Source: an uncultured Candidatus Saccharibacteria bacterium
GTDB taxonomy: Bacteria > Patescibacteriota > Minisyncoccia > Phycocordibacterales > UBA6899
NCBI GenBank assembly: GCA_964515375.1
Contig: CAZERF010000002.1
Span: forward strand, 93,164-157,163
Reading direction: 5' to 3'
DNA: 64,000 bases
Shown here: in pieces, positions 20,409 to 53,936 of the stretch
Numbering within the stretch: the first letter of the stretch is position 1
Layout of the letters: each line of letters opens with the position of its first letter
Notes under the pieces: model-generated
The model's database searches: none
Seen by the model: only the letters and a program-made list of their open reading frames with translations
Told to the model about the DNA's origin: nothing
Made by a program: the position numbers and the translations under genes

Positions 20409-20423
20409 TCATTCGAGGACTCA

Positions 20424-27643: not shown

Positions 27644-27722
27644 CCCGACAGAGAGACCCAAGAGGCGACCGAGAAGGGTCGCTTTTTGGTAAAGAAAGTT
27701 CTAGACTCAGTAGGTCAAAAAC

Positions 27723-34925: not shown

Positions 34926-35065
34926 TGAATGACGCTACCCTCCCAGGGAGTCCAGGAATGGCAGATAGTACGCAATAAGGGTAAATATAGTCAAAAATAT
35001 CAATCCTTGCGTAAGGATTGACAATCCTTACATAGGAGAATAGTATTTACGCATAAACAAAAACC

Positions 35066-35284
35066 ATGAAACAAGAAGAAAAGCGCGAAAGATTTAAGAG
35101 GCTCGGGACGCAACGTACAAACGCGGTGCTCCAGAAGATCAAAGTGCTCAGCAATTGTGCGAATCGGAGCGCGTATGAGTATACGGAAGAGGAGGTGAAT
35201 AAGATTTTTTCAGAGATTGAACGGCGGGTACGCGAGGCGAAGGCGAAATTCCATTTCCCGAAGACGAAAGAATTTAAACTATAA
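35066..35284 (+). CDS. Small basic hypothetical protein, first gene of the GHKL/Type III operon
   Basis: 72 aa, Lys/Arg/Glu-rich helical protein. Lies 4 nt upstream of the GHKL ATPase gene. Confidence 0.45.
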   Translation: MKQEEKRERFKRLGTQRTNAVLQKIKVLSNCANRSAYEYTEEEVNKIFSEIERRVREAKAKFHFPKTKEFKL

Positions 35285-35288
35285 AAAT

Positions 35289-37043: not shown

Positions 37044-37906
37044 GCACTCAAGTCCTCATAGAAGCCATCACGCCTTCATATAATGCCTACCAGAAGGGTC
37101 AGGGTACCCTCACGCCAACCGAGCTCATTATGCTCATGTGGGACATTGGCGCAGCGATTGAGAGGCATGTGAATGAACACAAAATCCCCCCACATGCGCT
37201 GTATCGCCAGGTATATGGCAAGAGTGAGGGTACGCAAAACATCAAACAGCGCAGTTATATTGCGCGTGAGTTTTTAAGTAGAAGCTATCGCGTGAAGCGC
37301 ATATTCAAGACGAAGAGTGAGATCAAAAAGCAACTTCCGAAACTTTCCGCGATCAATCACTTTCGTGAGGCGATGCCATTTTTTGATAATCCAAAGTATG
37401 TACTTGGGGCAAAAGAAAAGCAGGAGCTCCTTCGTGTGATCAATGGTCCGCTCTCCAACAAAGAGAAAGAGAACTACATCCAGAAACTTCAATCAAAGAA
37501 AATCGGGATCAAGAATCCGCGTACACAAAATCTGAATCTCCTTGATGAGGATAAGTTGGTGTTTGTGAAGCTCTATAACGATGTGTTCAACGCACTGAAG
37601 CTTGAGAACTATGACAAGGCAAAGAAAGCCCTCTCTCTCCCGTCACCAAAATTTCTTGCGATACTTTCACTCAACTGTGGAGCTATTTCTGCCGATGGGC
37701 TCATGATGGAAAAATTTGAACCGCCGAAGGATCTCAGTGCGAAGTGGAAGGCGTTTGTCGGGGTGATACAAAAGCTCATCAAAGATGAAAACCCGAAAGA
37801 ACGTAGACGCTTCCGGAGACTCATCCCACCAGAGCGCATGATCCGACTCTCCGAAATGCTCTACGCATTGACCACTCCGGAGAAATATAAGAGCTTCAAG
37901 ATATAA
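37040..37906 (+). CDS. Hypothetical all-alpha protein co-transcribed between the GHKL ATPase and Mod
   Basis: 288 aa with no recognisable domain. Translationally coupled upstream; 16-nt gap to mod. Confidence 0.5.
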   Translation: MSTQVLIEAITPSYNAYQKGQGTLTPTELIMLMWDIGAAIERHVNEHKIPPHALYRQVYGKSEGTQNIKQRSYIAREFLSRSYRVKRIFKTKSEIKKQLPKLSAINHFREAMPFFDNPKYVLGAKEKQELLRVINGPLSNKEKENYIQKLQSKKIGIKNPRTQNLNLLDEDKLVFVKLYNDVFNALKLENYDKAKKALSLPSPKFLAILSLNCGAISADGLMMEKFEPPKDLSAKWKAFVGVIQKLIKDENPKERRRFRRLIPPERMIRLSEMLYALTTPEKYKSFKI

Positions 37907-37922
37907 TCACAAGATAAACAGC

Positions 37923-39818
37923 ATGAACAAATTTGACCCCACATCACACAACATCACGGAGGAGCAGAGAGCCCAACTGAAGGAATCGTTTCCAGAAGCA
38001 TTTACTGAGCAGGGAATAGATTTTGAGTGTCTCAAGACACTTCTCGGGGAAACGGTTGAAACAGGACCCGAGCGCTATTCCTTCACCTGGCCAGGGAAGA
38101 CTGAGGCGATTCGTGCCGCACAAGCATCAAGTATGGGCACGCTCGTTCCAGACAAAGCATCGTCAGTGGATTGGGACACCACAGAGAATCTGTATCTTGA
38201 GGGAGACAACTTGGAGATTTTGAAGCTCCTTCAGAAGTCCTACGCCGGAAAAGTGAAGATGATCTATATTGACCCTCCATACAACACTGGAAAGGACTTT
38301 GTGTACCCCGACAAGTATGGTGAGGGCCTGAAGACATACCTGGAATATACGGGGCAAATAGATGGCGAGGGAAAGAAGCTGACGACAAACACCGAAACAG
38401 ACGGTCGCTACCACTCAAAGTGGCTTAACATGATGTACCCACGACTGATGCTCGCACGGAATCTGCTCAAGGATGATGGGGTGATCTTCGTCTCAATTGA
38501 TGATCATGAGGTCCACAATCTGCGGAAGATTATGGACGAGGTTTTTGGAGCAGAGAATTTTATAGCAGTATTTACATGGGTGCGCAAAAAGAAAGGTTCA
38601 TTCTTGTCTGACAAAACAAGAAAAATGACGGAATATATAGTCTGCTACCAAAAAAATATTTCTGAAAAATTGGAGTTTTATGGAGAGGATGCATACGCGG
38701 ACAAATGGCAGCCCATCGTGAAGCGTACAAATTCAGAAAAAGAACTATCAATCCCAGAAAATGTTGTTGAAACAACACTGGAAGATGGAGAATATGAGGG
38801 TGGATTCCGAGGCAACGAAGGAACCGGTATAAATTTTCAAAACAACTTTAAAGTTGAAGATGGTCTTGTAAAAAACAGGATTATCGTACGTGGAAACTTT
38901 GTTTGGACACAAGATTTTTTAGATCGCGAACTTGTTAGTGGCACCAGGATTTCTCTCTCAACAAAATTTGGTTTTAATGTCTTGAGGCACGATCAAGAAG
39001 AAAAAACAAAAACACCGTCAACCCTAATTAATAGTGACAATGATGTTGGAACGAATGAGGATGCCACCGCTGAGGTAATCAGCCTATTTGATGGAAAGAA
39101 AGTTTTTGATTATCCAAAACCCGTATCACTACTTTCTTATTTAGTGAAAATGGTTACTTCCGAAAATGATATTGTATTAGATTTCTTTTCCGGATCAGGA
39201 ACCACCGCACATGCGCTGATGGAAATAAATGCTAAAGATGGGGGAGGGAAAAAATTTATATTAACCCAGCTTCAGGAAACAGTACCTAACGATAGTGAAG
39301 CGCAAAAATCTGGATTCCAAAATATCTCAGAACTTGGACGCGAGAGAATCAAGCGCGCCGGAAAGAAAATTCGCGAGGAACTTGCCGAGAATATCACCAC
39401 AAGAGAAACCCCACTGGACACAGGATTTAAGGTATTTCGCCTTGCTCCAAGTACGTTCAATGTTTGGGATGTGAAAGGAGAAGATGATCTTCAAGTGAAA
39501 CTCGTTGACGCCACTTCCTTGATCAAGGGGGATGCAAAAGAGGAGGACATTCTCACTGAGCTCATTTTGAAGAGTGGCTACGGACTCACAGAGAAAGTTG
39601 AGCAGATCACACTCTCCGAGAAGAAGTTTTATTCGGTCGCAGGTGGGAAGCTCATTGTTTCGCTTGAGTCAGGACTTACGCTAGAGCATGTACGGGCAAT
39701 TGCCGAGAAGAAACCGGAACAGTTTGTTGCGCAGGAGCATGGCTTTGCAAGCAACGATGTGTTGACCAACACTGCGCAGATTATGAAAGATAAGGGAATT
39801 GATTTCCGCGTACTCTAG
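37923..39818 (+). CDS. mod: Type III restriction-modification methyltransferase (Mod), N6-adenine, beta class
   Basis: IYIDPPYNTG (motif IV, DPPY), then a central variable TRD, then VLDFFSGSGTTAHA (motif I FxGxG). 631 aa. Confidence 0.85.
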   Translation: MNKFDPTSHNITEEQRAQLKESFPEAFTEQGIDFECLKTLLGETVETGPERYSFTWPGKTEAIRAAQASSMGTLVPDKASSVDWDTTENLYLEGDNLEILKLLQKSYAGKVKMIYIDPPYNTGKDFVYPDKYGEGLKTYLEYTGQIDGEGKKLTTNTETDGRYHSKWLNMMYPRLMLARNLLKDDGVIFVSIDDHEVHNLRKIMDEVFGAENFIAVFTWVRKKKGSFLSDKTRKMTEYIVCYQKNISEKLEFYGEDAYADKWQPIVKRTNSEKELSIPENVVETTLEDGEYEGGFRGNEGTGINFQNNFKVEDGLVKNRIIVRGNFVWTQDFLDRELVSGTRISLSTKFGFNVLRHDQEEKTKTPSTLINSDNDVGTNEDATAEVISLFDGKKVFDYPKPVSLLSYLVKMVTSENDIVLDFFSGSGTTAHALMEINAKDGGGKKFILTQLQETVPNDSEAQKSGFQNISELGRERIKRAGKKIREELAENITTRETPLDTGFKVFRLAPSTFNVWDVKGEDDLQVKLVDATSLIKGDAKEEDILTELILKSGYGLTEKVEQITLSEKKFYSVAGGKLIVSLESGLTLEHVRAIAEKKPEQFVAQEHGFASNDVLTNTAQIMKDKGIDFRVL

Positions 39819-39820
39819 TC

Positions 39821-42766
39821 ATGAAGCTGCAATTTGATCCAAACCAGGAGTACCAGATGGATGCGGTTCGTGCATCGGTAGATCTCTTTGAGGGGCTACC
39901 GATTGAGGAGGACAGTTTTTCCGTTTCTGTGGCAAAAGAAAATTTGCCAGGGATGTTTGAGGCGCAAACTGAAGATGTGCTCGCATTTGGAAACCACACC
40001 ACTCTCCCCGACGATGAATTATTGAAGAATCTTCAGTCTGTGCAAGAACGAAATGGGATTGAGGTCACTGAGACACTTCAGAAAACAATGGGGTATCCGC
40101 AATTCTCTGTTGAGATGGAAACTGGGACAGGAAAGACCTATGTGTATCTACGCACGATCCACGAGCTCCATGCGAAGTATGGATACAGCAAGTTTGTGAT
40201 CGTGGTTCCCGGTAAGGCAATTCGCGAGGGAACACTCAAGAATTTGGAGATCACGGGAGATCACTTCCAGACTCTCTATGGAAACACGCCATTTTCGTAT
40301 GCAGTGTATGACTCAAAAAACATGAGTACTGTGCGTGACTTTGCTGTATCGCGCGGGCTCTCAATTTTGATCATCAACATTGAGGCATTTCGTAAGGATT
40401 TTGATGATGAGAATATGGATCCCGAGAGAGGTGTGCTTTTTCATCGTCCGAGCGAGAAGCTCTCCGGTCGTTCACCGCGCGAATTCTTGCAAGCAGTCCA
40501 TCCGATTGTGATTATTGATGAACCGCAGAGTGTAGACAATACTCCGATAGCAAAGAAGTCCATCTCACTCCTTAATCCTTTATTCACCCTCCGCTATTCT
40601 GCAACGCACCGTAATCCGTACAATCTCATTTATCGCCTAGATCCCATTCGTGCGTATGAGATGCGACTCGTGAAGAAGGTCGCTGTGGCCGAAGTTCTTG
40701 GATCACAAGAATCGGGGGCAGGTGCGTATATAAAACTCATTTCAGTTACCAATGATGGAGGAATTAAGGCACAGATTGAGATTGATGAGGATAACGAAAG
40801 CGGTCCGAAGCGAAAGAAGATCAAAGTGAAGGGTGGTGACGACTTGTTTGTGAAATCCAAACATAGAGATGCTTATCAGAATGGTTTTCTGGTCGGCGAG
40901 ATTGGCGCCGAACAAGGGAAGGAGTTTATTTCTTTTGAACCAAGTGGAATCACGCTCCATATTGGCGAGGCACTCGGTGGTGACGATGAGGCTATTAAGC
41001 GCCTCCAGATCAGGAAAACGATTGAAGAACATTTTGAAAAGGAACTAGAGCTTGAAGGGCGCGGAATCAAAGTGCTCTCGCTTTTCTTTCTGGATCGTGT
41101 AGCAAACTATCGTCTCTATCCCGAAGAAGGGGAAGCTGAGAAGGGTCAGTACGCCAAGTGGTTTGAGGAAGAGTATGAGCGTCTGCGTCAGACTGAGAAA
41201 TATAAGACACTGAAGCAGCCACCAGTTGAAAAGGTGCATGATGGTTATTTTGCTGAAGACAAGAGCGGCAAACTCAAAGATTCTCGCGGTGAGGGCGATA
41301 CCGCCGACGATGAATCTGCTTACAACAAGATCATGAAAGAGAAGGAGCGCCTGCTCTCTTTTGAGGAGCCCCTCAAGTTCATTTTCTCTCACTCAGCATT
41401 GCGTGAAGGATGGGACAATCCGAATGTGTTTCAGATTTGCACACTCAATCAGGCACATAACGCGATCAAAAAGCGCCAGGAAATTGGGCGTGGGATGCGC
41501 CTCCCCGTGGATCAGAGTGGGGTCCGCGTATTTGATGAGTCAATTAACAAACTCGTTGTTGTTGCGAATGAGAGTTATAAGGATTTTGCACGAAAACTCC
41601 AGACTGAATATGAAGAAGATTGTGGGGTAACATTCGGAAAGATTACTGAGAAGACATTTGTGGGACTCACATATGAAAAAGATGGCGCAGAGGTGTTGCT
41701 AAATGAAGCAACGATTGCGACAATCATCCAAACACTTCGGACATTAGGCATGATTGATGAGAATGGCAAACTCACGGATGCTTTTGATCCTACACAAGTA
41801 GGATTCACCCTGGGGCTCATGGGAGACTTGAAGGAGATTGAACTGGAGATCATTGATCGGATCAAAGAATACCAACTTGAGCGCCATATTGTGCGTCACC
41901 AAGCGAAAGGGCGCGTTAAGATCAACAAAGAAGTATTCTTGAGCCCCGATTTTGCTGAGTTGTGGAATCGTATTAAGGCAAGAACTACCTATGCGGTGAA
42001 GTTTTCCGACGACCTACTGATAACGACAATTTCGGATCGCCTGCGTGCAATGCCCGCGATCACGCTCCCTAAGGTGCAGTATGTGAAGGCTGAGTTCTCG
42101 CTGGATGATCGTGGGGTGACAACACGCGAGGTGCGAAATAGAACCGAGGAGGTGAAGCAGGACAATGCGCAGCTTCCGGACATCCTCTCGTATCTCCAAC
42201 GAGCAACGCATCTTCGGAGGAAGACGCTCGTAGATGTACTTACGCGCTCGGGGAGGCTCGCTGATTTCGCGAAAAACCCTCAAAAATTCATGGATGTGGT
42301 GGCCGAGACAATCCGCGCTGAGCTTCGCCGTCTTTCTGTTGAGGGTATTCAGTATGAGCGTGTGGCAGGCGAGGAGTATGAAATGACCCTTTTTGAGGAT
42401 CACGAGTTTTCTGCATATTTGAGCGATCTTCTCCCGTCTAAGAAGTCGGTGTACGAACGCGTTTCCTATGACTCTGATATTGAGCGTCGCTTCGCCTTGG
42501 AGTTAGAGAAGAAGGATCAGGTCAAACTCTATGTCAAACTTCCATCATGGTTTACCGTTGAGACTCCGGTGGGCAAATACAATCCCGATTGGGCGATAGT
42601 GAAGCACGGAGACGAGAAGGTGTACTTGGTCCGAGAGACGAAAGGTTCACTTGAAGCAAGCGCGCTCCGAATTTCAGAAGATCAGAAGATCAAGTGCGGC
42701 AAGAAGCACTTCGCCTCCATCGGCATGGACAACTTTGAGGTGGTAAAAGATGCGAGTGAGATATAG
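39821..42766 (+). CDS. res: Type III restriction enzyme Res subunit (SF2 helicase + C-terminal PD-(D/E)xK nuclease)
   Basis: METGTGKTYVYLRTI (Walker A), VIIDEPQ (motif II), QxxGRGxR-like region HNAIKKRQEIGRGMRL. 981 aa. Starts 3 nt after the mod stop. Confidence 0.85.
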   Translation: MKLQFDPNQEYQMDAVRASVDLFEGLPIEEDSFSVSVAKENLPGMFEAQTEDVLAFGNHTTLPDDELLKNLQSVQERNGIEVTETLQKTMGYPQFSVEMETGTGKTYVYLRTIHELHAKYGYSKFVIVVPGKAIREGTLKNLEITGDHFQTLYGNTPFSYAVYDSKNMSTVRDFAVSRGLSILIINIEAFRKDFDDENMDPERGVLFHRPSEKLSGRSPREFLQAVHPIVIIDEPQSVDNTPIAKKSISLLNPLFTLRYSATHRNPYNLIYRLDPIRAYEMRLVKKVAVAEVLGSQESGAGAYIKLISVTNDGGIKAQIEIDEDNESGPKRKKIKVKGGDDLFVKSKHRDAYQNGFLVGEIGAEQGKEFISFEPSGITLHIGEALGGDDEAIKRLQIRKTIEEHFEKELELEGRGIKVLSLFFLDRVANYRLYPEEGEAEKGQYAKWFEEEYERLRQTEKYKTLKQPPVEKVHDGYFAEDKSGKLKDSRGEGDTADDESAYNKIMKEKERLLSFEEPLKFIFSHSALREGWDNPNVFQICTLNQAHNAIKKRQEIGRGMRLPVDQSGVRVFDESINKLVVVANESYKDFARKLQTEYEEDCGVTFGKITEKTFVGLTYEKDGAEVLLNEATIATIIQTLRTLGMIDENGKLTDAFDPTQVGFTLGLMGDLKEIELEIIDRIKEYQLERHIVRHQAKGRVKINKEVFLSPDFAELWNRIKARTTYAVKFSDDLLITTISDRLRAMPAITLPKVQYVKAEFSLDDRGVTTREVRNRTEEVKQDNAQLPDILSYLQRATHLRRKTLVDVLTRSGRLADFAKNPQKFMDVVAETIRAELRRLSVEGIQYERVAGEEYEMTLFEDHEFSAYLSDLLPSKKSVYERVSYDSDIERRFALELEKKDQVKLYVKLPSWFTVETPVGKYNPDWAIVKHGDEKVYLVRETKGSLEASALRISEDQKIKCGKKHFASIGMDNFEVVKDASEI

Positions 42767-42782
42767 CACAACAACAAACACC

Positions 42783-43316
42783 CTACGTGGGGTGTTTGTT
42801 GTTCTCGCCACTCTTTTGTTTCGCCTCTTCACATTTTCTGATTTCCTCTTCCAACTTAAATACACCTGCGAGGCCGGCGTTGTGGAGCGCTCTTGATATC
42901 TCCTCCAACATATAGTCTGGAAGACGATTCTCCAGCGGGTTACTCTCATCAGTGTATCTCCATCGAGAATCGGCATAGGTGCCATGGTGATGCTTGAGCC
43001 AGAAGACAATTGCAGTCATTGCGCCATCTTTGATTTTCTTAATGAGTTGAGACTCGGCCATATCGTTGACGAGAGTTCGTCCTTCGCTGATCGCGACCGC
43101 GCTTTCCTCGGCGAAGTGCTTATCCGAATTCATCCACTTGTAGTATGTTGCACGGGCGACCCCAGCTCGCTCGCAAGCAAGCTGGATGATCGAACTCTTG
43201 CGCAGGTGCTCAAGTACTTCCTGCTTCATTTGTGCGGTGCGCTTCTCTGTCGCACCACTTGGTTGGGACACTACTTTCTTCGGTCCCCGCTTTGGTGTGT
43301 GCGGTGACCGGGTCAT
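42783..43316 (-). CDS. HTH DNA-binding protein (terminase-small-subunit / transposase-OrfA-like HTH)
   Basis: IIQLACERAGVARATYYKWMNSDKHFAE is a typical phage/IS HTH_23-type motif. Confidence 0.55.
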   Translation of the reverse strand: MTRSPHTPKRGPKKVVSQPSGATEKRTAQMKQEVLEHLRKSSIIQLACERAGVARATYYKWMNSDKHFAEESAVAISEGRTLVNDMAESQLIKKIKDGAMTAIVFWLKHHHGTYADSRWRYTDESNPLENRLPDYMLEEISRALHNAGLAGVFKLEEEIRKCEEAKQKSGENNKHPT

Positions 43317-43325
43317 ACGAGCGAA

Positions 43326-44666
43326 TTAGTTGATCTTCTTTGCCCGCACCCCGGCTGTTTTCTCCCACCGACGCAGAATCACCTCGGCATAGACGGGGGA
43401 CTTTTCCATGAGAAAGCACCGTCGTCCAAGCTTGAGTGAGGCGATGAGGGTACTTCCGCTTCCGCCAAAGGGCTCAAGAACGAGGTCTCCGCGTTTGGTG
43501 AGCACCTTGATGTATGGGATGAGGATCTCGGTCGGCTTTGTCCCAAAGATGACCCCTTGTCCTGATGACTTCTCGTCCGCGGCGATATACTCAACGAAGT
43601 CGGTCGGACAGACCTTCTTTCCTTTCTCGTACCCCTCCCACTGGGGTTTACCACTTGTCGCATAGAGGGCATTCTCGTATTCATTCTGGAAGAGACCTTC
43701 TTCTTCCTCGAGGTTGAGTCCGACATTTCCGATTGACCCCACCAATGCAATATCTTGCTTATTGAAGAACTTATACTTTGAACTAAAGCCCTGCATTCTA
43801 TTAGGGAGATGCCAAGTGATGGTATTGCGGTACTTCCAATGCTTCTCGAGCTCGTTCCATATAGTGCGGAGATTCTTTGGGTGCTCGAAGATCATGATTG
43901 AGAAATCCTCTTTCTGCACCTTCGCGACATTTGCCATCCATTTCTCGGTAAAGTCTGGTGGAAGGACGTCGGTCTCGAGGTATCGACGGTTCTTCTTCGC
44001 CCCGAATCCAGTTGTGACACCATCCTTCTGCTTCGTTTTGCCCTTTAAATAATCAAGGATATACGGAGGATCCGTCATGGTCATGTCCACTCGCTCATCG
44101 CCCATGAGGGTGAGCATGTTCGCTTCGATGGTCGAGTCCCCACACATGAGCCGGGAGCCGTTGCATTCATAGATGTCACCCTTCTGCACTTTCACTTCTG
44201 TAATCGAGAGTTTCTCGAGTTCTTTCTTGAGATCGAATTGTTCCGGCGCAGAATCAACATCGAAGATGCTATCGAGGTCTTCCGTGGTGAAGCCAATGTC
44301 TTTCAAGAAATCCTCTCCGAAATCTGCGAGCATCTTGAAGTCGAACTCCCCGAGATTCTTATTCAGTCGCACATTAAGCTCCTTCTCCTTCGCGAGGTCT
44401 GCAATCGTGATGTACACCACGGGGACTTGTTCAACGCCAAGCTCGGTCGCTGCCTTGAGTCGGAAGTGACCGCCAATGACGATGTTCTCTCGTCCGGGCG
44501 CATCGTTTGCCACGAGCGGATCTACAAAACCGAAACGCCTGATGCTCTCCTTGAGTGCGCTCATCTGCTCCGCATTCCACGTGCGCGGGTTGTATTCGCT
44601 TGGCTTGAGGCTGGTAATCGATACATAGCTGATAGATAACTTGTTCATAACAAAATAGCTAACCAT
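43326..44666 (-). CDS. ParB-like nuclease domain fused to a DNA methyltransferase (phage-type orphan N6/N4 MTase)
   Basis: N-terminal ParBc region ISITSLKPSEYNPRTWNAEQMSALKESIRRFGFVDPLV. MTase motifs DPPY (TMTDPPYILDY) and EPFGGSGSTLIA. Confidence 0.75.
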   Translation of the reverse strand: MVSYFVMNKLSISYVSITSLKPSEYNPRTWNAEQMSALKESIRRFGFVDPLVANDAPGRENIVIGGHFRLKAATELGVEQVPVVYITIADLAKEKELNVRLNKNLGEFDFKMLADFGEDFLKDIGFTTEDLDSIFDVDSAPEQFDLKKELEKLSITEVKVQKGDIYECNGSRLMCGDSTIEANMLTLMGDERVDMTMTDPPYILDYLKGKTKQKDGVTTGFGAKKNRRYLETDVLPPDFTEKWMANVAKVQKEDFSIMIFEHPKNLRTIWNELEKHWKYRNTITWHLPNRMQGFSSKYKFFNKQDIALVGSIGNVGLNLEEEEGLFQNEYENALYATSGKPQWEGYEKGKKVCPTDFVEYIAADEKSSGQGVIFGTKPTEILIPYIKVLTKRGDLVLEPFGGSGSTLIASLKLGRRCFLMEKSPVYAEVILRRWEKTAGVRAKKIN

Positions 44667-44940
44667 TAATCAATTTGGTTTCGATTTGGGGTTGAAGCGC
44701 AAACGCTATTTGGTGAGAAACAAAAAACTCCGCGACCGCGAATGACATTCTGTGCGAGCAATGCATTCGTTACTACTTGGGAGTTCTACTTAGTGAAAAA
44801 CCTATTTGGGATACTGTTTGGTTATCTTTATGGTATGCCTTTGACGCTTTTTCGCAATGGATAGTTATCCACTATTACGCTATTCGCACCGTTGTCGGTT
44901 GGAGTATGTGGAACAAGTATGTTGGCGGTACAATATAGTG

Positions 44941-45492
44941 ATGGAAGATTTACAAGCAGAATATAGAACTGCTTACCAAAACGGTGAGTATGAAAAGTGT
45001 CTCGAGCTAACAAACGTGGTACTTACCGACGATCCTATTAATTTTGACGCACTGGCTCAGAAGGGTGCGACATTAATGCGTTTAAATAGGAACAAAGATG
45101 CAATCGAAGTATTTTCCGAATCCATCAAGGTGAACAATACTGCTTACCATGTTTGGGTATTCAGGGGAGATTGTCATTACGCGTTGGCTGATTATGAAAA
45201 AGCCTTCAGTGATTATTGGGTTTCCTTACAACTTGAACCTGACAATGGTGCAGCAGTTGATAGATGTGCTCGCTGTTTGTTTCATATGGGGGACACAAAA
45301 GAAGCATTGAAATATATAAGGAAGGCAGCCGGAATAGCAGAGTCTTCAGAGCCAATGCTGGTAATGATTCACATGTTGAAACTAATGGGATTTCCAAGTT
45401 ACGCAAAGGAAGTCTATCGAATGGGTCTTAAGAAATTTCCTGAAGAAAGCGAGAGGTTCCGTGTATTTCTAGACAGAGAAATAGAAAAATAG
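44941..45492 (+). CDS. TPR-repeat protein
   Basis: Three or four TPR-like helical repeats (AYQNGEYEKCLE..., ALADYEKAFSDY...). The start was moved to the ATG at 44941. Confidence 0.5.
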   Translation: MEDLQAEYRTAYQNGEYEKCLELTNVVLTDDPINFDALAQKGATLMRLNRNKDAIEVFSESIKVNNTAYHVWVFRGDCHYALADYEKAFSDYWVSLQLEPDNGAAVDRCARCLFHMGDTKEALKYIRKAAGIAESSEPMLVMIHMLKLMGFPSYAKEVYRMGLKKFPEESERFRVFLDREIEK

Positions 45493-45823
45493 GCACAATG
45501 CGACGGTGTGTCTACTTTGTCTACTCAATTTGGTTCGAGTCCGAGTAGGGGGGGCTGATGAAGAGTCGAACTTTTTTATGAAACCCAGGTGGTGCTTGTG
45601 GGGTCTCATGAAGTGCGAGAATCGTCAGAATGAGGAGGCGGAGGCAAGAGAGGGGGTGATGATGGGGAAGTGATCTTTTGACCCCGACCGGATAGCCTCC
45701 TGTCTACTTGAAGAAGGAGCTCAAAGAACCTTGTCAGGGCCTCGCCCCCAAAGGTCGTGACTGGATTGGCACCCAACATCACAAAAGCAGAGCGTAAGCT
45801 CTGCTTTTGTTTTGATGTTGGAG

Positions 45824-45844
45824 TGCCTACAGGGATTCGAAAGA
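45824..45844 (-). repeat. Inverted copy of the tRNA-His 3'-end core (inverted att-core fragment)
   Basis: Reverse complement ctttcgaatccctgtaggcac has 19 nt matching tRNA-His 27622-27640. It sits 214 bp before attR. Confidence 0.7.
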
Positions 45845-46057
45845 CGGAGCCGGTACACAAGACGAGCGAAGCGAGTACTTGTCGGCGAGTCGGGGTCGAC
45901 AGCACTTATGAGCGAAGCGAATTAGTGACTGGTGACCGAATCCCCCTTGCATGTTTCCGTCAGGGATTCGAAGACCGCAGTGATGTTTCGTCAGCAGACG
46001 AAACCACGAGGGGCGGGCTGCGAGCTTGTCGCGCGGGGGCGAGACAAGACTTGTTGC

Positions 46058-46076
46058 CGAATCCCTGTAGGCACCC
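46058..46076 (+). repeat. attR: 19-bp direct repeat of the tRNA-His 3' end
   Basis: cgaatccctgtaggcaccc is identical to 27625-27643. Confidence 0.8.
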
Positions 46077-46137
46077 AAAATTGCACATATTTCTTAATAT
46101 GGTATACTTAAAAAATCACAATAAACCATATTAGGAT

Positions 46138-47079
46138 ATGTCAGTACTTGAAGCAAAACTCAAAAAAAGAATTGAACAAAAAAGAGAAGCACTGAACAAT
46201 CTCCGCCCACTTTCCACAACTGCGGTCAAAAAACTTCGAGAACAATTCGAGCTCGAAATGATCTATAACTCAAATGCGATCGAGGGGAATACGTTGACCC
46301 TAAAAGAAACATTCCTCGTATTATCTGAGGGCATTACCATAAAAGGAAAGCCGCTCAAGGATCACTTGGAGGCAAAGAATCACGCAGAAGCACTCACGTA
46401 CCTGTTTGACTTGGTAGACAAGGACAAGAAACATTCGTTTTCAGAGCATCTCATCCGCACTCTTCATCAGTTGGTTGTTCTGGATACAGAGAAAGAATCG
46501 GCCGGGAAATATCGCACGAGCGGCGTACTCATTACCGGCACCACTCATCGCCCCCCAGATGCTTTTGAGGTTCCGCAATTGATGCATGAACTCATTGGAT
46601 GGGTCCGTGCGCAAAGAACGAAACTATATCCAGTGGAGCTCGCGGCGATCCTGCACCACAAGATCGTTCATATCCATCCATTCTTCGATGGGAACGGGAG
46701 AACAGCGCGCCTCGCAATGAACGTCATTTTGCTCCAGGCGGGGTTTCCGTTGGTTGTCATTCTAAAAAATGATCGCAAAAAATATTATCGCGTACTTGCC
46801 CTTGCTGATAAAGGGAACTATACCCAGCTTGTGAAATTTGTAGTTCAGGCGGTTGAGCGGTCACTCGATATGTACGTGAAGGTACTTACTCCAAAAGAGA
46901 AAAAGAGTGAAAAATTTTTTACTCTCACAGAGTTAAGCAGAGGAACCTCATATTCCGCAAAATACCTCAATTTACTTGTTCGATCAGGAAAACTCGAGGC
47001 CCACAAAGAGGGGAGGAATTGGCTCGCTTCAAAAGAGGCACTGGCTAGATATATCTCTACCCGCGAAAGAAAAAGATAA
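46138..47079 (+). CDS. Fic family protein (AMPylator) with an N-terminal inhibitory helix motif and a C-terminal winged helix
   Basis: HPFFDGNGRTARL is the Fic motif HPFx[DE]GNGR. SNAIEGN matches the class II [ST]xxxE[GN] inhibitory motif. Confidence 0.85.
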   Translation: MSVLEAKLKKRIEQKREALNNLRPLSTTAVKKLREQFELEMIYNSNAIEGNTLTLKETFLVLSEGITIKGKPLKDHLEAKNHAEALTYLFDLVDKDKKHSFSEHLIRTLHQLVVLDTEKESAGKYRTSGVLITGTTHRPPDAFEVPQLMHELIGWVRAQRTKLYPVELAAILHHKIVHIHPFFDGNGRTARLAMNVILLQAGFPLVVILKNDRKKYYRVLALADKGNYTQLVKFVVQAVERSLDMYVKVLTPKEKKSEKFFTLTELSRGTSYSAKYLNLLVRSGKLEAHKEGRNWLASKEALARYISTRERKR

Positions 47080-47344
47080 TTTCTCCAAATCCCCCTTGAT
47101 CTGTGGCCAATCAAGGGTTCTGAATACGTCCCGATGGTGGCCCAGCGAGCTTCTTGAGAAAACCCCAAAAGGGGTTTTCCCTTTTTCGCTGGGTGCCTAA
47201 GCAAGGTAACTGTTTGCCTTTTAGGGATGGAGCACAAAGACAATACCTTCCTTCTTGAGACACCACTCCTGCGGGTGAAAAATGAATAAATGCAGAAATT
47301 GGTCGCCCTTTTGTGGCGCGAACTTTTTATGGGATAGTTGAAGT

Positions 47345-47896
47345 ATGAACTATCTTGCAACTCTAAAAGATAAAGATGTCTTTCCCAACAAAACTTTCCC
47401 TGAAGTACTCGAGTGGTCGGAGCGTAAGACCGTGAAGGTCATTTTGAGAAACGAGAAAGGAGAGATCGCACTTGTGACCAATCCTATCCATAAATGCCAC
47501 CTCCTCCCCGGGGGAGGTGTCGATGAGGGTGAAGACATACTGCATGCTGGCGACCGAGAGTGTCGCGAAGAGGTGAAATATTCGATTGGCGTGGTGGAAG
47601 AAATCGGCGTTATTGAAGAGTATCATGCTCGGGATGGGAAGCATTACGAAACGCATGGGCTCATTGCGAATGCAAAAGATCACATTCCCGAAGACTTAAG
47701 GACGGAAGATGAAAAGAAGAACGAGCTTTCGGTCGAGTGGCATGCGCCAAAAGATGCTCTGGCACTGTTTGAGGCACAGAGAAAACGCCTCGAAGCGGGA
47801 GAGGTAGACTTTTACAATACTGGATTCAACATCATCAGAGACAAGCTATTTTTTGACCGCACAGTGGAAGCAGGACATATCATTCTCGGTTCATGA
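47345..47896 (+). CDS. NUDIX hydrolase
   Basis: LPGGGVDEGEDILHAGDRECREEVKYSIG is the Nudix box GX5EX7REUXEEXGU. Confidence 0.8.
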   Translation: MNYLATLKDKDVFPNKTFPEVLEWSERKTVKVILRNEKGEIALVTNPIHKCHLLPGGGVDEGEDILHAGDRECREEVKYSIGVVEEIGVIEEYHARDGKHYETHGLIANAKDHIPEDLRTEDEKKNELSVEWHAPKDALALFEAQRKRLEAGEVDFYNTGFNIIRDKLFFDRTVEAGHIILGS

Positions 47897-48108
47897 CCGG
47901 ATTGGTTCGAATCCCCTTACTCCACCCGATGCAGAGACCCAAGAAGTGACCTGGAAGAGTTGTTTTTTTTGGTAAGAAAATTTCTAAACCCCAGACTGGT
48001 TCTGTTCTGTGAATGCTATCTTTCCATCATTTACAAACGTGGCGAGGCACATACGCACACGCGAAGCAGCGAATGTGTTCTTTAATTTGGAACTGGTATA
48101 CTTAAAAG

Positions 48109-48585
48109 ATGAGAAAACGAACTACCTTTTTGGCCCTGCTATTTTTGTTGCTGATCTTTGCTGTATATTCTGCCTCACCGAGTGGTCGTTTGTGGATAAA
48201 GAATTTAGGACAAGAACGAACGGAATACAATTTTATTTATGCTTATGATTGGGAGTGGAACAATACGGGGAATTCTCCGTACAAGATAGAAGGTAATAAA
48301 ATTTTATATACATCATCTAGTACGCCTAATCCCTATCTCTTTAATGTTGCAAAAGAGGTAGGCAAGAGTATACCTGTTGACGCGATTCAAAGTCTCCGGA
48401 TTTCCGAGGATCTCGTTTCTCCTGATGGGTTTGTATTTATTCGTGAATATTTGCCCTGCGATCAAAATGGACAGTGCCCTCATATTTATTTACGGAATGT
48501 AGCTTCGGGAAATCAGCGAGAAATAGATTTACCCCCTATTGAGTTTATTGGCGGACCACACTTTGTAGGGTGGATTATTCCATAA
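48109..48585 (+). CDS. Secreted hypothetical protein (AT-rich)
   Basis: Signal peptide MRKRTTFLALLFLLLIFAVYSASP. 158 aa. Confidence 0.5.
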   Translation: MRKRTTFLALLFLLLIFAVYSASPSGRLWIKNLGQERTEYNFIYAYDWEWNNTGNSPYKIEGNKILYTSSSTPNPYLFNVAKEVGKSIPVDAIQSLRISEDLVSPDGFVFIREYLPCDQNGQCPHIYLRNVASGNQREIDLPPIEFIGGPHFVGWIIP

Positions 48586-48662
48586 TTATCGGGCACCGTT
48601 TCAGCCTCGTCCTGGCAGGTACCCCTGATGCAGAGACCTAAGAGGCAACCCGGAAGAGCTGA

Positions 48663-50654
48663 ATGCTCTTGAAAATCAACATGAAAAGAGAATATTATTC
48701 TGATTCGATTGCTAGTTTTTTAAGAACAGAATCAGATGTGATTCTTGGTATTTTGGTTAGAAATAATGATTTTAATCTAGAGCAGACACAGCGAGATTCA
48801 TGGCTCGAGGAAATAGTGATTCTCAAGAAAGCACTCGAGTGTTTTGAGGGCTCAATATATTTTGAATATTCTATCCCAAGAATGGGGAAACGAATTGATG
48901 TTGTATTGATTGTTGGAACAGCCGTATTTGTTCTCGAGTTTAAAATTGGAGAAAAGGAATATACATCGTACGCGATAGATCAGGTTTGGGATTATGCTCT
49001 CGACTTAAAAAACTTTCATAGTTCAAGCCATAAGCACTATATTGCTCCAATACTTATTGCTACAAACGCAAAATCAACTATACAAATCCCCGTTCTAACT
49101 CCTCAAAATGACAAGGTCTTGTTTCCAATAAAGACAAACGCAGATGGAATAAAAAATTCCATAGATAATGTGCTTGCTTTTTTAGATGGCGAGAACATAA
49201 AAAATGAGGAATGGGAAAAGGGTAGGTATTGTCCAACCCCCACAATCGTGGAGGCAGCAATGGCACTTTATCGTGGTCACTCGGTTGAAAATATTTCTCG
49301 AAGCGATGCTGGGGCAATAAATCTGACACAAACATCAAAAGTTGTATCGGAAATAATCGAGTTGTCAAAACAAACTCACAAAAAATCAATTTGTTTTGTG
49401 ACTGGAGTTCCAGGTGCAGGAAAAACATTAGTTGGGCTTAATATTGCGAATAAGCATATTGATAAAGACAATGATTTATATAGTGTATTTCTTTCTGGAA
49501 ACGGACCACTTGTTGCTATATTGCGAGAGGCACTCACGCGCGACAAAGTTGCTCATGAAAAAGAAAAGGGAAACAAAATTACCAAAGGTGAGGCAATGCG
49601 TGATGTAAAGTTGTTTATTCAGAATGTTCACAATTTTCGTGATGAGTGCCTTAACGATGAAAAGCCACCGCTTGAACACGTTGCACTTTTTGACGAAGCA
49701 CAGCGAGCTTGGAACATAGAGCAGACAGCAAACTTTATGTTAAGAAAAAGGCATAGACCAGGGTTTAGTCAATCAGAACCAGAATTCTTGATCTCTTGCC
49801 TGGATAGACATAATGATTGGGCTGCCGTGGTTTGTCTTGTTGGTGGGGGCCAAGAGATAAATACGGGTGAGGCGGGGATCGGTGAATGGATAGAATGTCT
49901 AAATCGTTCGTTCCCTGATTGGAATATTTATATATCATCCCGTCTCACCGACAGTGAGTATGGAGCGGGAAGGGTTTTAGGAGAAATTGCATCTCGCAAA
50001 AATGTTTTTACAAGGGATGAATTGCATCTATCCGTATCAATGCGCTCGTTTCGAGCAGAACATGTTTCTTTGTTGGTAAAACAGATTTTGGACATGGATG
50101 TCACAGGGGCGAAAAGTACCCTGAAAAAAGTTGAGGCGAGGTATCCCATAGTAATTACTCGAGATGTTTCTAAGGCAAAAGAGTGGCTCAAGAACCAGGC
50201 ACGAGGCTCAGAGCGATATGGAATGATGGTGTCGTCGCAAGCAGAAAGATTAAAGCCTTATGCGATATTTGTAAAATCAACAACAGACCCAATCCATTTG
50301 TTTTTGGATGAAAAAGATGACGTTCGGTCATCGTACTATCTTGAAGATGTTGCTACTGAGTTTGATATACAAGGCCTCGAGTTAGACTGGTCGTGCGTTG
50401 TTTGGGATGCTGATTTTAGATACACAAAAGATGGATGGGAGCATCGCTCATTTGTGGGTAGTAAATGGAACAAAATAAATAAGGTTGAGCGACAAATGTA
50501 CCTCAAGAACGCTTATCGTGTTTTACTTACGCGCGCCAGGCAGGGAATGGTAATAGTTGTACCGCTGGGTGACAAGGAAGATTCGACACGCAACCCAGAC
50601 TTCTATGATCCGACATTTCGGTATCTCAAGGAAATTGGACTAACGGAAATATAA
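48663..50654 (+). CDS. DUF2075-like P-loop NTPase / helicase-like protein with an N-terminal nuclease-like domain (defence-associated family). AT-rich.
   Basis: Walker [16 protein letters not shown]-terminal [26 protein letters not shown] looks like a PD-(D/E)xK-like core. 663 aa. The true start may be the ATG at 48681, because the conserved motif overlaps 48663. Confidence 0.6.
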
Positions 50655-50835
50655 CAATGCAACGAAACTTAACACCGACCGAGAAGCCCTTCTGTTTACG
50701 ATAAGCAGGAGCGCAAAGAACCTTTTCGAGCCGATTATATTCCTCCAATAGCGAAGGATATGCTTTTTCTATTGGAACGAACTATTCATTGTGACCGGTG
50801 GTCGTGGTGGTTGAGCGTACCAGATCACAAAAAAA

Positions 50836-50866
50836 AGACCGCTAGAGCGGTCTTTTTTATGGCATT
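50836..50866. terminator. Bidirectional intrinsic terminator between the DUF2075 gene (+) and hcp (-)
   Basis: aaaaaaaagaccgctagagcggtcttttttat. Confidence 0.7.
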
Positions 50867-50873
50867 TGTTCTC

Positions 50874-51410
50874 TTAGCTAAAGAGTCCCTTCATGAAGTC
50901 GAGGACCGCACGGACGGCCTTCTCTCCTGTCGAGCTCGACGTGTACTCGACGGTCATCTTTGTGAAGTTGAGTGAAACACTCTCGGTCGGTTCGTCCCCA
51001 CCCGCGGAGACCTCATAGCTCGTGCAACGTACACCCTCGAGTTTGTATGTAAGGTATTGTTCCGCACGATCTCCACTCGTTCGGCGCATTGTGATCACGG
51101 CGTCCTTGATGTGCTCTCCCGAAGCGCAGCGCTTCATGAGGAGAGGGGAGGACTTGTCGTATCGTTTGGTAAAGGAAAGGTCCTGCACATTGACCTTCCC
51201 GGCCCCGCCTCCGCTTCCGGTCGACATGGAGCTCGAATTGCTCATGCCCCAGCTCCACGAGGAGATCTCGATCTCGCCTTTGTGTTGTTCGTGAGTAGAT
51301 TCGCCCTCCACTCCGTTCATCTTGAGGAAATAATCCGATGCCGCGAGTGCAAACATCGGCGTTGCGAATAATGCCGCTCCGGAGAGCGCTGCAATGATAG
51401 CGTTGCGCAT
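50874..51410 (-). CDS. hcp: Hcp family protein (type VI secretion tube protein fold) carrying an N-terminal Sec signal peptide
   Basis: EISSWSWGMSNSSSMSTGSGGGAGKVNVQDLSFTKRYDKSSPLLMKRCASG aligns closely with the canonical Hcp1 core AWSWGMSQSGSMHMGGGGGAGKVNVQDLSFTKYIDKSTPNLM. Preceded by MRNAIIAALSGAALFATPMFALAAS. Confidence 0.8.
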   Translation of the reverse strand: MRNAIIAALSGAALFATPMFALAASDYFLKMNGVEGESTHEQHKGEIEISSWSWGMSNSSSMSTGSGGGAGKVNVQDLSFTKRYDKSSPLLMKRCASGEHIKDAVITMRRTSGDRAEQYLTYKLEGVRCTSYEVSAGGDEPTESVSLNFTKMTVEYTSSSTGEKAVRAVLDFMKGLFS

Positions 51411-51561
51411 ATGATGATCTTCTAGAGATTCTAAATAATGAAAAACTTCGCGCGCCGAGCATGGCCCAGCCGTATATTCAGTATAGAACTGCCGAAAGTG
51501 GTGTCAATGTGGAATTTTTCATTGGTATTCCTTGTCTTCTGGGAATGGTATACTGACCCAT

Positions 51562-52287
51562 ATGCTCAATGTCACCCAACTTACCAAAACATTTGGAGCA
51601 AAGATCGCCGCGAGCGACGTTTCTTTCACGATCGCGCCGGGCGAGATCTTTGCGCTTATCGGCCCTAATAGCTCGGGAAAGACGACCATCGTGAAGTCGA
51701 TCCTCGGGATGCTTGCGTTTGAGAAAGGAACGATCACTGTCGACAATATCGACGTGGCCAAGAACCCTGTCGGAGCAAAGGCGCGAATCGGATATATTCC
51801 GGACGAACCTGTCGTGTGGAGCGGAATGACCGGGGAAGAATTCTTGCATTTCGTCAGTGCGCTTTATGATGTTTCACCGGCGACACGCGCCGAACGCATC
51901 GCGCGTATACTCCCCATCTTTCGTCTCGAAGGTATCGAAAAGGAATATTTTACCGCATACTCACGCGGTAATAAACAAAAATTCAGTATCCTTTCGGCGC
52001 TTGTCCATGAACCGAAACTTCTTCTTATTGACGAGCCGATCGTCGGACTTGACCCGGAAAGCGCGGCGATCGCGAAGGGCGAGTTTGTGCGCTTTGCGAA
52101 GGATGGAGGTGCTGTACTCCTCGTTACACACACGCTCTCCGTTGCAGAGGAGATCGCACATCGTATCGGTGTGCTCAAAGAAGGAAAACTTCTCGCGGTC
52201 GGAACATTCGCGGAGCTGCGCGATCTCGCCGGTCTTGGCACCAGCGCATCGCTTGAGGAGGTTTATACGCGTCTCACTACACGTTGA
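51562..52287 (+). CDS. ABC transporter ATP-binding protein
   Basis: Walker A GPNSSGKTT, ABC signature YSRGNKQKFSI and Walker B LLLIDEP. Confidence 0.85.
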   Translation: MLNVTQLTKTFGAKIAASDVSFTIAPGEIFALIGPNSSGKTTIVKSILGMLAFEKGTITVDNIDVAKNPVGAKARIGYIPDEPVVWSGMTGEEFLHFVSALYDVSPATRAERIARILPIFRLEGIEKEYFTAYSRGNKQKFSILSALVHEPKLLLIDEPIVGLDPESAAIAKGEFVRFAKDGGAVLLVTHTLSVAEEIAHRIGVLKEGKLLAVGTFAELRDLAGLGTSASLEEVYTRLTTR

Positions 52288-53936
52288 TCATGTTCTTTCG
52301 TGAATTTCTTTCATTTCGCGCGCGGGCGCTTCGACGCTCTTTTGCGGAGAACCGCACGGCGAAGATCCTCACGATCTTGGGGTTCGTCGGGGCGCTCGGC
52401 GTGCTGATGCGTATTGTCTACGAACTCTTTTGGTACGGTTTTCGCTATCTTGCCAAGGATCCGTTCTTCGGTGACGCGCTCACGCTCTATATCGTGGAGC
52501 TCTTTCTTCTTGTCTCCTTTGGTCTTGTGCTTCTTTCCGCGCTCGCAAGCGGTGCGTTCACGCTCTTTCGTGCTCCAGATGACGCGCTCATCATGGCTTC
52601 GCCCCATCACGCTTCTCGTGTCGGAATGGTGGCGGGACGTATGGTCCTCTCGTCGCTCTGGCCTTTGCTTGTAGTGATCATTCCCGCTCTGCTTGCGCTC
52701 GATCGCGTCTTCGGGATCTCGCTTGTTGGCTCTTTTCTTGCGCTCGCATCGGTCACGCTTCTCGTTGCGCTTGCGGTTGTCCTCGCGATTTTGTCGCTCT
52801 TTGTGGTCGGGATCTTGCTCGCGCGTATAGGACTCTTTTCATCACGTCGCGTTGCGTTCGCCACAGGGGGGCTCTTTGCCATCGCATCGCTTTTTGCGTG
52901 GGCACGGTTTCGCGCGCTTGACCTTGTGCAATTCTTTCAGGCGAGAATGATCGACCTTGCCGTTCCTGACCTTTCCCCGATCATACTCCAGTTTCGTGTC
53001 TTCCCTTCACATTTCACTGCGCAAACGATCATTGCGTCGATCGCTGAAGATCTTCCCGGCGCGCTCCTCCCGCTCTGCTTTCTCGCGCTCCTCTTCCTTG
53101 TGGCGTTTGTCGCGCTTACCCTCCTTCGTTCGCACTATCTGTCACTCTGGCAAAGAGGGGAGGAACGCAACTCGAACACTCGTTTTGCTTCGTTGCCCTT
53201 CGCGTCACTCATCCCCCTTGCACGCTCCGCTCGAGGCGCGCTCCTCAAGAAGGAAGTTGTCGCGTTCATTCGCAATACGCGCGGGATGTTGTGGTTCTGG
53301 TTCATTCTCTTTATTTGGCTCCTCCAGGTCGGGGCGAGTCGTGTCATGATCGCGGGCATTTCGAGTGAACCGGTCGCTGCGGGCGACATGCCTGCGATCG
53401 TCGGGGTGCTCCAGTTCATTTCCGTGCTCTACTTTGTCACAATGTTCGTTTTGCGTTTCGTCTTCCCGTCCTTCTCCGCGGAGCGTTCGACGTCCTGGAT
53501 CGCCGCAATGTCGCCGGTCGCCTTGCGCGAGATCTTTGTCGCGAAACTGGTCTTCTTTGGGGGCATCTTCACCTCCTTCGCGCTTTTCTTTGCACTCGTG
53601 AATGTGTGGGCGCTTGGACTTCCGCTCGAGGCTGATCTTCCTGTGCTCGCAATGATGATCATCGGAACACTCTTGATCACGACATTTGGACTGGCATTGT
53701 CGGCGATGTTTCCGAATACGGAGACTGATGATCCTGAACGCTTGAGCACAACACTTCCTGGTATCGGCTTCATGCTTGGCGCTCTTGTGCTGATCGGTGT
53801 CGGCGCCTTCTCTGTCCATCAGTATGTATCCGCCGTAAGTCCGCTCCCATACATCGCATTCCTCTTTGGAGGCATCGTTGCAATTCTTCTTTTGGTAGCA
53901 CGCGCGCGCGAGGCGCTTGATCGACCGATCATCTAG
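52284..53936 (+). CDS. ABC transporter permease (multi-TM, ABC-2/exporter type)
   Basis: 550 aa with at least 10 hydrophobic helices. Overlaps the ATPase stop by 4 nt. Confidence 0.7.
   Translation: MIMFFREFLSFRARALRRSFAENRTAKILTILGFVGALGVLMRIVYELFWYGFRYLAKDPFFGDALTLYIVELFLLVSFGLVLLSALASGAFTLFRAPDDALIMASPHHASRVGMVAGRMVLSSLWPLLVVIIPALLALDRVFGISLVGSFLALASVTLLVALAVVLAILSLFVVGILLARIGLFSSRRVAFATGGLFAIASLFAWARFRALDLVQFFQARMIDLAVPDLSPIILQFRVFPSHFTAQTIIASIAEDLPGALLPLCFLALLFLVAFVALTLLRSHYLSLWQRGEERNSNTRFASLPFASLIPLARSARGALLKKEVVAFIRNTRGMLWFWFILFIWLLQVGASRVMIAGISSEPVAAGDMPAIVGVLQFISVLYFVTMFVLRFVFPSFSAERSTSWIAAMSPVALREIFVAKLVFFGGIFTSFALFFALVNVWALGLPLEADLPVLAMMIIGTLLITTFGLALSAMFPNTETDDPERLSTTLPGIGFMLGALVLIGVGAFSVHQYVSAVSPLPYIAFLFGGIVAILLLVARAREALDRPII

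Follow-up and report, generated by a model that had tools for sequence, protein, structure and literature searches.

A putative Sec-exported Hcp homologue from a bacterium of the candidate phyla radiation

Hcp proteins and the leader-bearing gene of the window

Hcp, the tube protein in type VI secretion systems (T6SS), is a textbook case of release in the absence of a signal peptide, and finding it in a supernatant or a genome is used as a hallmark of T6SS activity. Hcp1 (TssD) of Pseudomonas aeruginosa (PA0085, PDB entry 1Y12) carries no signal peptide, assembles in the cytoplasm within the TssB/C sheath on the VgrG spike, and leaves the cell when the sheath contracts. The tube proteins of contractile phage tails and of extracellular contractile injection systems (eCIS), such as gp19 and Afp1/Pvc1, belong to the tube-protein fold class and follow the same hexameric-ring logic as Hcp; their assembly is cytoplasmic, and lysis sets them free. 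Polymorphic toxins are also known to carry N-terminal HCP1 domains (Zhang et al. 2012, PMC3482391). Here we describe an Hcp homologue encoded in a 64-kb stretch of contig CAZERF010000002.1 (the whole stretch analysed is called the window below), in which a complete Hcp domain is preceded by a predicted Sec-type signal peptide. Unlike Hcp1, this protein has a Sec leader, there are no T6SS genes nearby, and the host belongs to a lineage without an outer membrane; it also differs in a divergent C-terminal tail and in a cysteine, Cys129, that is specific to the leader-bearing clade. The phage and eCIS tube proteins, in turn, belong to other sequence families: the window Hcp matches PF05638 only, and no sheath, baseplate or spike genes were found here.

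The gene lies on the minus strand at 50874..51410, as a complete open reading frame (ORF) of 178 codons followed by a TAA stop, and its ATG is the most upstream start codon after the preceding in-frame stop. The mature Hcp domain spans codons 24-178 (50877..51341, minus strand), as delimited by the Pfam match, the alignment with Hcp1 and the AlphaFold2 model. The Pfam profile PF05638 (T6SS_HCP, cut-off 23.5 bits) is matched over its full length (1-129 of 129) at residues 28-156, with an E-value of 4.3e-45 and 153.6 bits, and the NCBIfam model TIGR03344 ('type VI secretion system tube protein TssD') gives 75.4 bits, which passes its cut-off of 58.9 bits. Among solved structures the best match is P. 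aeruginosa Hcp1 (1y12, E 4.7e-37). The alignment begins at residue 24 of the query and residue 5 of Hcp1 and contains GGGAGKVNVQDLSFTK, a long stretch of identity; the predicted mature N-terminus stands at the same position as that of Hcp1. Identity over the whole domain is 42-55%, the length is the same, and the WSWG motif (read as WSWGMS in the window Hcp) and the GGGGAGKVxxQD motif are present in both proteins.

The AlphaFold2 model (monomer, 118 aligned sequences; mean predicted local distance difference test score, pLDDT, 82.4) is a beta-barrel with a single helix at residues 88-97. Residues 1-24 have no secondary structure in it and a pLDDT of 44-49, and a G-rich stretch is read in the sequence at about residues 56-72. 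Each of the top 50 Foldseek matches in the PDB is either an Hcp structure or an Hcp1 fusion construct, and 1y12 heads them with a template modelling score of 0.86 and a root mean square deviation of 2.5. Since Pfam, TIGR03344, the 1y12 alignment and the AlphaFold2/Foldseek comparison all agree, the Hcp identity is solid: the window protein is a full-length, bona fide Hcp-fold protein, and an earlier note on this DNA was right to describe its mature region as the Hcp core nearly motif for motif. A pilus-like role, considered because of PDB entry 7fcf ('Fimbrial protein'), was dropped, as the title of that entry describes a plain T6SS Hcp crystal structure.

Residues 1-23 (MRNAIIAALSGAALFATPMFALA; 51342..51410, minus strand) are predicted to be a textbook Sec signal peptide of the signal peptidase I (SPI) type, with the cut expected after A-L-A. 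In a rule-based manual reading the leader consists of the n-region M-R, the stretch NAIIAALSGAALFAT and the residues P-M-F-A-L-A, followed by A-S. The hydrophobic stretch is about 18 residues long (maximal Kyte-Doolittle hydropathy over 10 residues 2.26), a helix-breaking Pro stands at -6, and Ala is found at both -3 and -1. By this reading the charged n-region, the h-region of 10-20 residues and the small residues at -3 and -1 that are expected of Sec/SPI signal peptides are all present; neither a lipobox Cys nor a twin-Arg motif was found in the leader, and there is no Cys in residues 1-94. On the grounds of its sequence and of comparison with relatives, export of the window Hcp via Sec appears very probable. 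A cut after A23 would yield A-S-D-Y-F-L-K, which matches, nearly residue for residue, the N-terminus of the leaderless Hcps minus their Met (A-V-D-x-F-L-K).

Leaders of this kind recur among the relatives. Within a set of 121 sequences, i.e. the window protein plus the 120 database homologues that match it best, an N-terminal extension is found in 35, and 33 of these extensions are strongly hydrophobic with a small-residue motif directly ahead of (A)(S/V)DYFLK; one of the two exceptions, from SAR202, gains a hydrophobic N-terminus when it is read from an upstream start codon. The leaderless Hcps among the nearest homologues mostly start with MAV or MAAV ahead of D-x-F-L-K (64 out of 84). When the single-domain relatives are pooled, a hydrophobic leader is present in 87 out of 195, and 82 of the 89 long leaders carry a Lys or Arg within the first eight residues; counted as K/R together with a hydrophobic core, such leaders make up 82-86 of 89 cases. 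The signal peptide MRNAIIAALSGAALFATPMFALA, which the earlier note had placed ahead of the Hcp domain with its cut before A-S, is therefore borne out both by the rule-based reading and by the leaders of the relatives.

The undecaprenyl-diphosphate synthase (UppS) of the window has its best named relatives in Candidatus Lloydbacteria (64-66% identity), and the host is therefore placed in the Parcubacteria group within the candidate phyla radiation (CPR, Patescibacteria). CPR bacteria have no outer membrane; the T6SS is known from diderm bacteria only, and none is known in the CPR. About 50 window ORFs, including every ORF of at least 400 aa, were scanned against Pfam and no T6SS, phage-tail or eCIS families were found among them, in agreement with the earlier statement that TssB/C, VgrG and ClpV are missing nearby; two large ORFs, of 427 and 914 aa, gave no Pfam match of any kind. 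Nor was a T6SS cluster found on the contigs of five relatives (P0009, P0014, P0030, P0120 and P0007) in the stretches examined, which reach up to 10 kb on each side. The best match to the window Hcp in the GTDB species-representative genomes has 53% identity, while samples SRR35539484 and JGI 3300049811 contain a gene identical to it. A component of the T6SS tube has no signal peptide and co-occurs with T6SS core genes; here a signal peptide is predicted, and no core genes accompany the gene in the 64-kb window or its relatives on their contigs, therefore the window Hcp should not be annotated as a T6SS component.

Relatives of the leader-bearing Hcp

A HMMER scan of 1.84 billion cluster representatives (E <= 1e-3) found 12,105 Hcp relatives, and a large share of the best single-domain ones are leader-bearing. 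In the genomes that represent species, leader-bearing Hcps were found in Nitrosopumilaceae archaea (loci L020, L028 and L085), in the Candidatus groups Saccharibacteria (L022) and Komeilibacteria (L034), in Akkermansia (L045 and L071) and in an unclassified groundwater bacterium (L070). Two of the relatives, P0009 and P0014, lie on archaeal contigs near Rpb4, L21e, DUF655 and archaeal flagellin, and P0030 lies in a metagenome-assembled genome (MAG) of SAR202 Chloroflexota.

Both in the archaea and in Akkermansia the leader-bearing Hcp gene adjoins a second, longer leader-bearing Hcp-domain protein. The Nitrosopumilaceae paralogues are fused to TSP_3 (thrombospondin-type-3), HYR, MopE and Ig-like domains, and they contain repeated C-terminal 'P(D/S)WIKNNAKWWxxGQIxDxDF...GII' motifs. 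The archaeal loci concerned are found at 9166-9915 (minus strand) of L006, at 10571-11746 (plus) and 19063-20085 (minus) of L008, at 382-1137 (minus) of L020, at 9106-9852 (minus) of L028 and at 2846-5146 (plus) of L085. In L008, a 340-aa protein 9 kb away has a signal peptide, the WIKNNAKWW motif and a Phage_GPD (VgrG-like) fragment, so that archaea appear to possess several modules that derive from the T6SS and are exported via Sec. Domains such as the fused TSP_3, HYR, MopE and Ig-like ones typically occur in extracellular proteins, and they support independently an extracytoplasmic site for this branch of Hcps. In having Hcp as an N-terminal module, the archaeal and Akkermansia paralogues of the leader clade resemble the specialised ('evolved') Hcps of the Hcp-ET type, which are extended at the C-terminus. 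The latter, however, are T6SS substrates with toxins and no signal peptide, while the leader-bearing paralogues carry domains of an adhesion or surface type (HYR, TSP_3, MopE and Ig-like), and the window Hcp is without any extension.

The use of cysteines differs between the leaderless (n=106) and the leader-bearing (n=89) proteins. C95 is present in 94% of the former and 46% of the latter, and C108 in 64% against 6%; proteins with no Cys at all number 2 out of 106 among the leaderless and 39 out of 89 among the leader-bearing ones. Conversely, C129 is absent from all 106 leaderless proteins but occurs in 16 of the 89 leader-bearing ones, always together with C95, and the window Hcp is one of these 16 (codons at about 51126-51128 and 51024-51026). 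A C95-C129 disulfide may form in the exported Hcps, and this leader-linked cysteine usage, as read from the sequences, also points to an extracytoplasmic location.

Neighbour-joining trees built from the Hcp domain alone show that the leader state changes 7 times in a tree of 118 sequences, compared to about 30 times in shuffles, and 16 times in a tree of 195 sequences, compared to about 64 (15-25 changes over 30 bootstrap resamplings). There is one dominant clade in which all members have a leader (25 members in the 118-sequence tree and 52 in the 195-sequence tree), along with several small clades. Because the parsimony changes are few in comparison to the shuffles, the leader appears as a strongly heritable trait that belongs mostly to one lineage, and this main lineage, as defined from the sequences, is spread over archaea and distant bacterial phyla. 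Whether signal-peptide-bearing Hcps form a clade had been asked in the earlier note: strong clustering with one dominant all-leader clade was found, and strict monophyly was not supported by these trees of a short domain, which place several small clades beside the dominant one. Close homologues without a leader (starting with MAI, MAF or MAAV) were also seen in MAGs of Actinomycetota, which are monoderms (L029, L033, L035, L039, L048, L056 and L080); these could reflect contamination, eCIS-like systems or another T6SS-independent use.

The top HMMER matches are large, with lengths of 800-3600 aa; in 43 out of 63 of them there are exactly six Hcp domains in tandem, with linkers of about 20 residues in between. 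The large relatives include P0241-P0247, P0256, P0264, P0266, P0273 and others, and locus L093 (2212-5412) belongs here too. Many of the large relatives begin with an 'RRRLxxExLExRxLLA' motif, a candidate secretion signal of the Planctomycetes type; others have no leader and carry C-terminal extensions of 400-600 aa. The AlphaFold2 model of P0242 (1066 aa) has a predicted template modelling score of 0.77, a value that would fit domains fixed relative to each other, for instance in a closed ring, and no T6SS genes were found on the 7.4-kb contig around it. The six-domain proteins may be single-chain pseudo-hexameric Hcp rings, and from their existence we argue that the hexamer is the selected unit.

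A proposed mechanism and its alternatives

We consider it reasonably likely that the window Hcp is a Sec-exported, T6SS-independent ring protein that acts outside the membrane. The precursor would cross the cytoplasmic membrane unfolded through SecYEG and would be cut by SPI after A-L-A23, and the mature A-S-D-Y-F-L-K end would reproduce the N-terminus that cytoplasmic Hcps have after Met removal. The mature protein would then fold outside the membrane of a CPR cell that has no outer membrane, where it would probably form hexameric rings, like other Hcp1-type proteins. Such rings would act without sheath, baseplate and spike, as a scaffold or carrier in the envelope or the extracellular space, e.g. 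by presenting or binding secreted proteins, and a C95/C129 disulfide may stabilise the exported protein. Both the ring assembly and the scaffold or carrier role are suggested by analogy, from the conserved Hcp1-type core and from the relatives with fused domains. The window gene would be one member of a Sec-exported Hcp lineage found in CPR, Chloroflexota, Verrucomicrobiota and Nitrosopumilaceae. This is in essence what the earlier note had proposed, i.e. an Hcp repurposed for Sec-dependent export in an organism free of T6SS, and the leader as a family trait, the CPR host, the T6SS-free window and the archaeal fusions all agree with it; the chaperone or scaffold role that it gave as an example is conjecture, as is the assembly into rings. 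A wider view can be put forward more tentatively: it is possible that the Sec-exported Hcps are a large, ancient and undescribed branch of extracellular rings, either free, surface-anchored via fused domains or built as six-domain chains, that is spread over CPR, Chloroflexota, Verrucomicrobiota, Planctomycetota-like bacteria and ammonia-oxidising archaea.

Several points weigh against the proposal of an exported ring. Firstly, the cleavage, the ring formation and the function of the window Hcp are what we infer from its sequence. Secondly, its C-terminal 20 residues depart from the family consensus, and therefore its assembly properties may differ from those of Hcp1. Thirdly, codons 1-19, and the DNA upstream to about -45, are identical between the window Hcp and its orthologue of 90% nucleotide identity, so this pair gives no signal of coding constraint for the leader. 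Fourthly, apart from the paralogous Hcp-domain genes of archaea and Akkermansia, no conserved partner gene was found near the leader-bearing Hcps across lineages. Finally, the host is placed by a single marker, UppS, and outside the 64-kb window the case against a T6SS in the genome comes only from general knowledge of the lineage.

A first alternative is that the N-terminal segment is an uncleaved signal anchor that tethers Hcp to the outer face of the cytoplasmic membrane. Many relatives have a transmembrane-like segment and a linker of 9-40 residues before the Hcp domain (the gap is at least 9 residues in 59 out of 89), a layout that resembles an anchor plus a stalk. The window leader, however, is only moderately hydrophobic, as its maximal hydropathy of 2.26 indicates, and P-x-x-A-L-A|A follows directly after the h-region with no linker before the first beta-strand. 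Six subunits each with an adjacent transmembrane helix would also be sterically awkward, and on balance we regard an anchor as unlikely for the window protein.

Equally unlikely, in our judgement, is that the epibiotic CPR cell uses the Sec-exported protein in soluble form, as an effector, an adhesin or a factor in host interaction, with no ring built and nothing carried. CPR bacteria are mostly episymbionts, the archaeal relatives are fused to adhesion-type domains, and the Hcp gene of one Saccharibacteria genome follows a 3138-aa ORF of unannotated function, all of which would suit such a role. On the other hand, the Hcp1-type core is retained nearly motif for motif, with 42-55% identity to ring-forming Hcps, the six-domain single chains point to the hexamer as the unit under selection, and the Pfam and PADLOC scans found no toxin domain in the window Hcp.

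Much less probable is a third alternative, in which M19 is the true start and the product is a canonical cytoplasmic Hcp, working for a T6SS whose genes lie in another part of the genome. The earlier note had raised such a start against its own proposal, and it has some points in its favour: M19 is present and is kept in an orthologue of 95% identity, codons 1-19 show no substitutions that could prove them coding, and the data cover the 64-kb window of the genome. Nevertheless, dozens of relatives have an equivalent leader and most of the leader-bearing homologues have no Met at that position; because equivalent leaders recur in relatives without M19, the leader is a real trait of the family and not an artefact of the start codon, and the mis-called start was rejected on this ground. 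In addition, M19 lies 7 residues before the conserved D of D-x-F-L-K, while leaderless Hcps start 3-5 residues before it, and a purine-rich, Shine-Dalgarno-like AGAAGA is found 7-12 nt upstream of M1 with nothing comparable ahead of M19. The T6SS that this reading demands would have to reside in a CPR host, a group in which none is known, and no T6SS gene is present in the window.

Both selection and regulation indicate a gene in use. The window Hcp differs from its L003 orthologue by 46 synonymous and 9 non-synonymous changes (dN/dS, the ratio of non-synonymous to synonymous substitution rates, 0.041, with a dS of 0.53), i.e. the gene is under strong purifying selection. Some 70 nt upstream of the ATG there is a promoter-like TTGACA-16 nt-TATACT (51480..51507, minus strand) that agrees with the sigma-70 consensus at 11 of 12 positions, and both hexamers are kept in the orthologous contigs L003-L005; the low dN/dS and the conserved promoter show that the gene is functional. 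The GC content of the gene (0.56) is like that of the flanking ABC operon (0.53-0.56) and of the UppS and PrkA genes (0.54 and 0.57, respectively), while the helicase, Fic and restriction genes on the other side have values of 0.40, 0.45 and 0.48. The gene thus looks like part of the core genome rather than a recent orphan acquisition, and the horizontally acquired orphan that the earlier note had also considered is disfavoured by its GC content and dN/dS, at least as a recent event. A decaying relic, left over from a T6SS gene that was acquired horizontally and now without function, is hardly credible, for although the gene is the sole Hcp-related gene of the window and stands at the edge of a mobile island, its ORF is intact, dN/dS is 0.041 over a dS of 0.53, its GC content is core-like and not island-like, its promoter is conserved and four other contigs show the gene in synteny with the ABC operon.

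A separate observation concerns the 5' region of the gene, where about 100 nt (approximately 51354-51455, minus strand, from -45 to codon 19) are 100% identical to the orthologue of 90% nucleotide identity, the rest of the gene having a dS of 0.63. In this region no Rfam family reached threshold as a regulatory RNA, and the fold z-score was +0.42 relative to shuffles; a constraint on translation initiation and local recombination are both possibilities.

Genomic neighbourhood and implications

The gene is flanked on one side by an SLFN-g3 helicase (formerly DUF2075; 48663-50654, plus strand) and on the other by an ABC ATPase and an ABC_tran_2 permease (51532-53936, plus strand), and the Pfam scan thus confirms the two neighbours, a DUF2075 gene and an ABC exporter, that had been named earlier. 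Hcp is divergent from the operon of the ABC ATPase, the ABC_tran_2 permease and a Gmad2-domain protein, and it is this arrangement that is kept in the four other contigs. ABC transporter genes are also found 0.2-2 kb from the leader-bearing Hcp in SAR202 (L010, 5894-9456) and Komeilibacteria (L034, 4828-6594), as in the window. These transporters are of different types and ABC genes are found everywhere, so the proximity may be a coincidence.

A bidirectional hairpin resembling an intrinsic terminator (A7 GACCGC-TAGA-GCGGTC T6; 50829..50858) lies 16 nt past the Hcp stop and is common to the convergent helicase gene. The terminator scan did not list it, we guess because A-T pairs extend its stem into the T-run, and weak Rfam matches of the leader or terminator type coincide with it. 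Abutting this terminator is a mobile defence island of low GC content (0.38-0.48; 33606-50654, possibly from about 27700), recognised by Pfam and PADLOC. Encoded in it are a serine recombinase and a GHKL ATPase; a type III-like restriction-modification pair of an N6/N4 methylase and a ResIII/endonuclease; a ParB-methylase and a TPR protein; and SoFic, a NUDIX protein and the SLFN/DUF2075 helicase, which is PDC-S41 in PADLOC (E 1e-286). Synteny with the orthologous contig stops just beyond the hairpin, and metagenome contigs of the sister strain break there. A functional link between Hcp and the helicase was rejected, as the latter is a PDC-S41 gene of a mobile low-GC island and synteny ends before it; being part of an inserted defence island, the DUF2075 neighbour is an accident of insertion and, contrary to its use in the earlier note, uninformative on Hcp. 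PADLOC gave no defence-system match for Hcp itself, the only matches being those of its island neighbours (PDC-S41 and SoFic).

Further along the window there is a 914-aa ORF without a Pfam match at 29849-32593, followed by a signal-peptide protein with a peptidoglycan-binding domain (32595-33590). A DUF4238 protein and a 326-aa unknown protein are encoded just upstream, and all of these lie in a low-GC stretch adjoining tRNA-His (27571-27646), which is a possible integration site. CreD and an operon of PrkA, DUF444 (YeaH) and SpoVR are found at 18756-25710; the PrkA/DUF444/SpoVR trio is associated with stress or sporulation and seems unusual for reduced CPR genomes. Other genes of the window encode PilM, ribosomal protein L19, RuvX and seven tRNAs.

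In the literature, including the survey PMC3482391, we found no description of Hcps with a Sec signal or of Hcps from archaea or CPR, although our coverage is incomplete and an earlier report may exist elsewhere. NCBI and JGI names as well as TIGR03344 call these proteins 'T6SS tube protein', and in such lineages T6SS would be overcalled as a result; if the wider view put forward above is true, Hcp homologues are no longer usable as T6SS markers. Leader-bearing Hcps occur where an outer membrane is absent (CPR, SAR202), and archaea have them as well. Provided that the rings assemble as expected, the protein could also be of use in nanobiotechnology, as a 40-Å ring that self-assembles and is naturally secretable. 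In CPR episymbionts, a secreted ring protein is a candidate part of the poorly understood cell-cell interface. From a conserved and selected lineage of Sec-exported Hcps it would follow that the Hcp ring was exapted to an extracellular role independent of T6SS, and the wider view, if true, would mean a second, independent life of the T6SS tube protein as a secreted building block.

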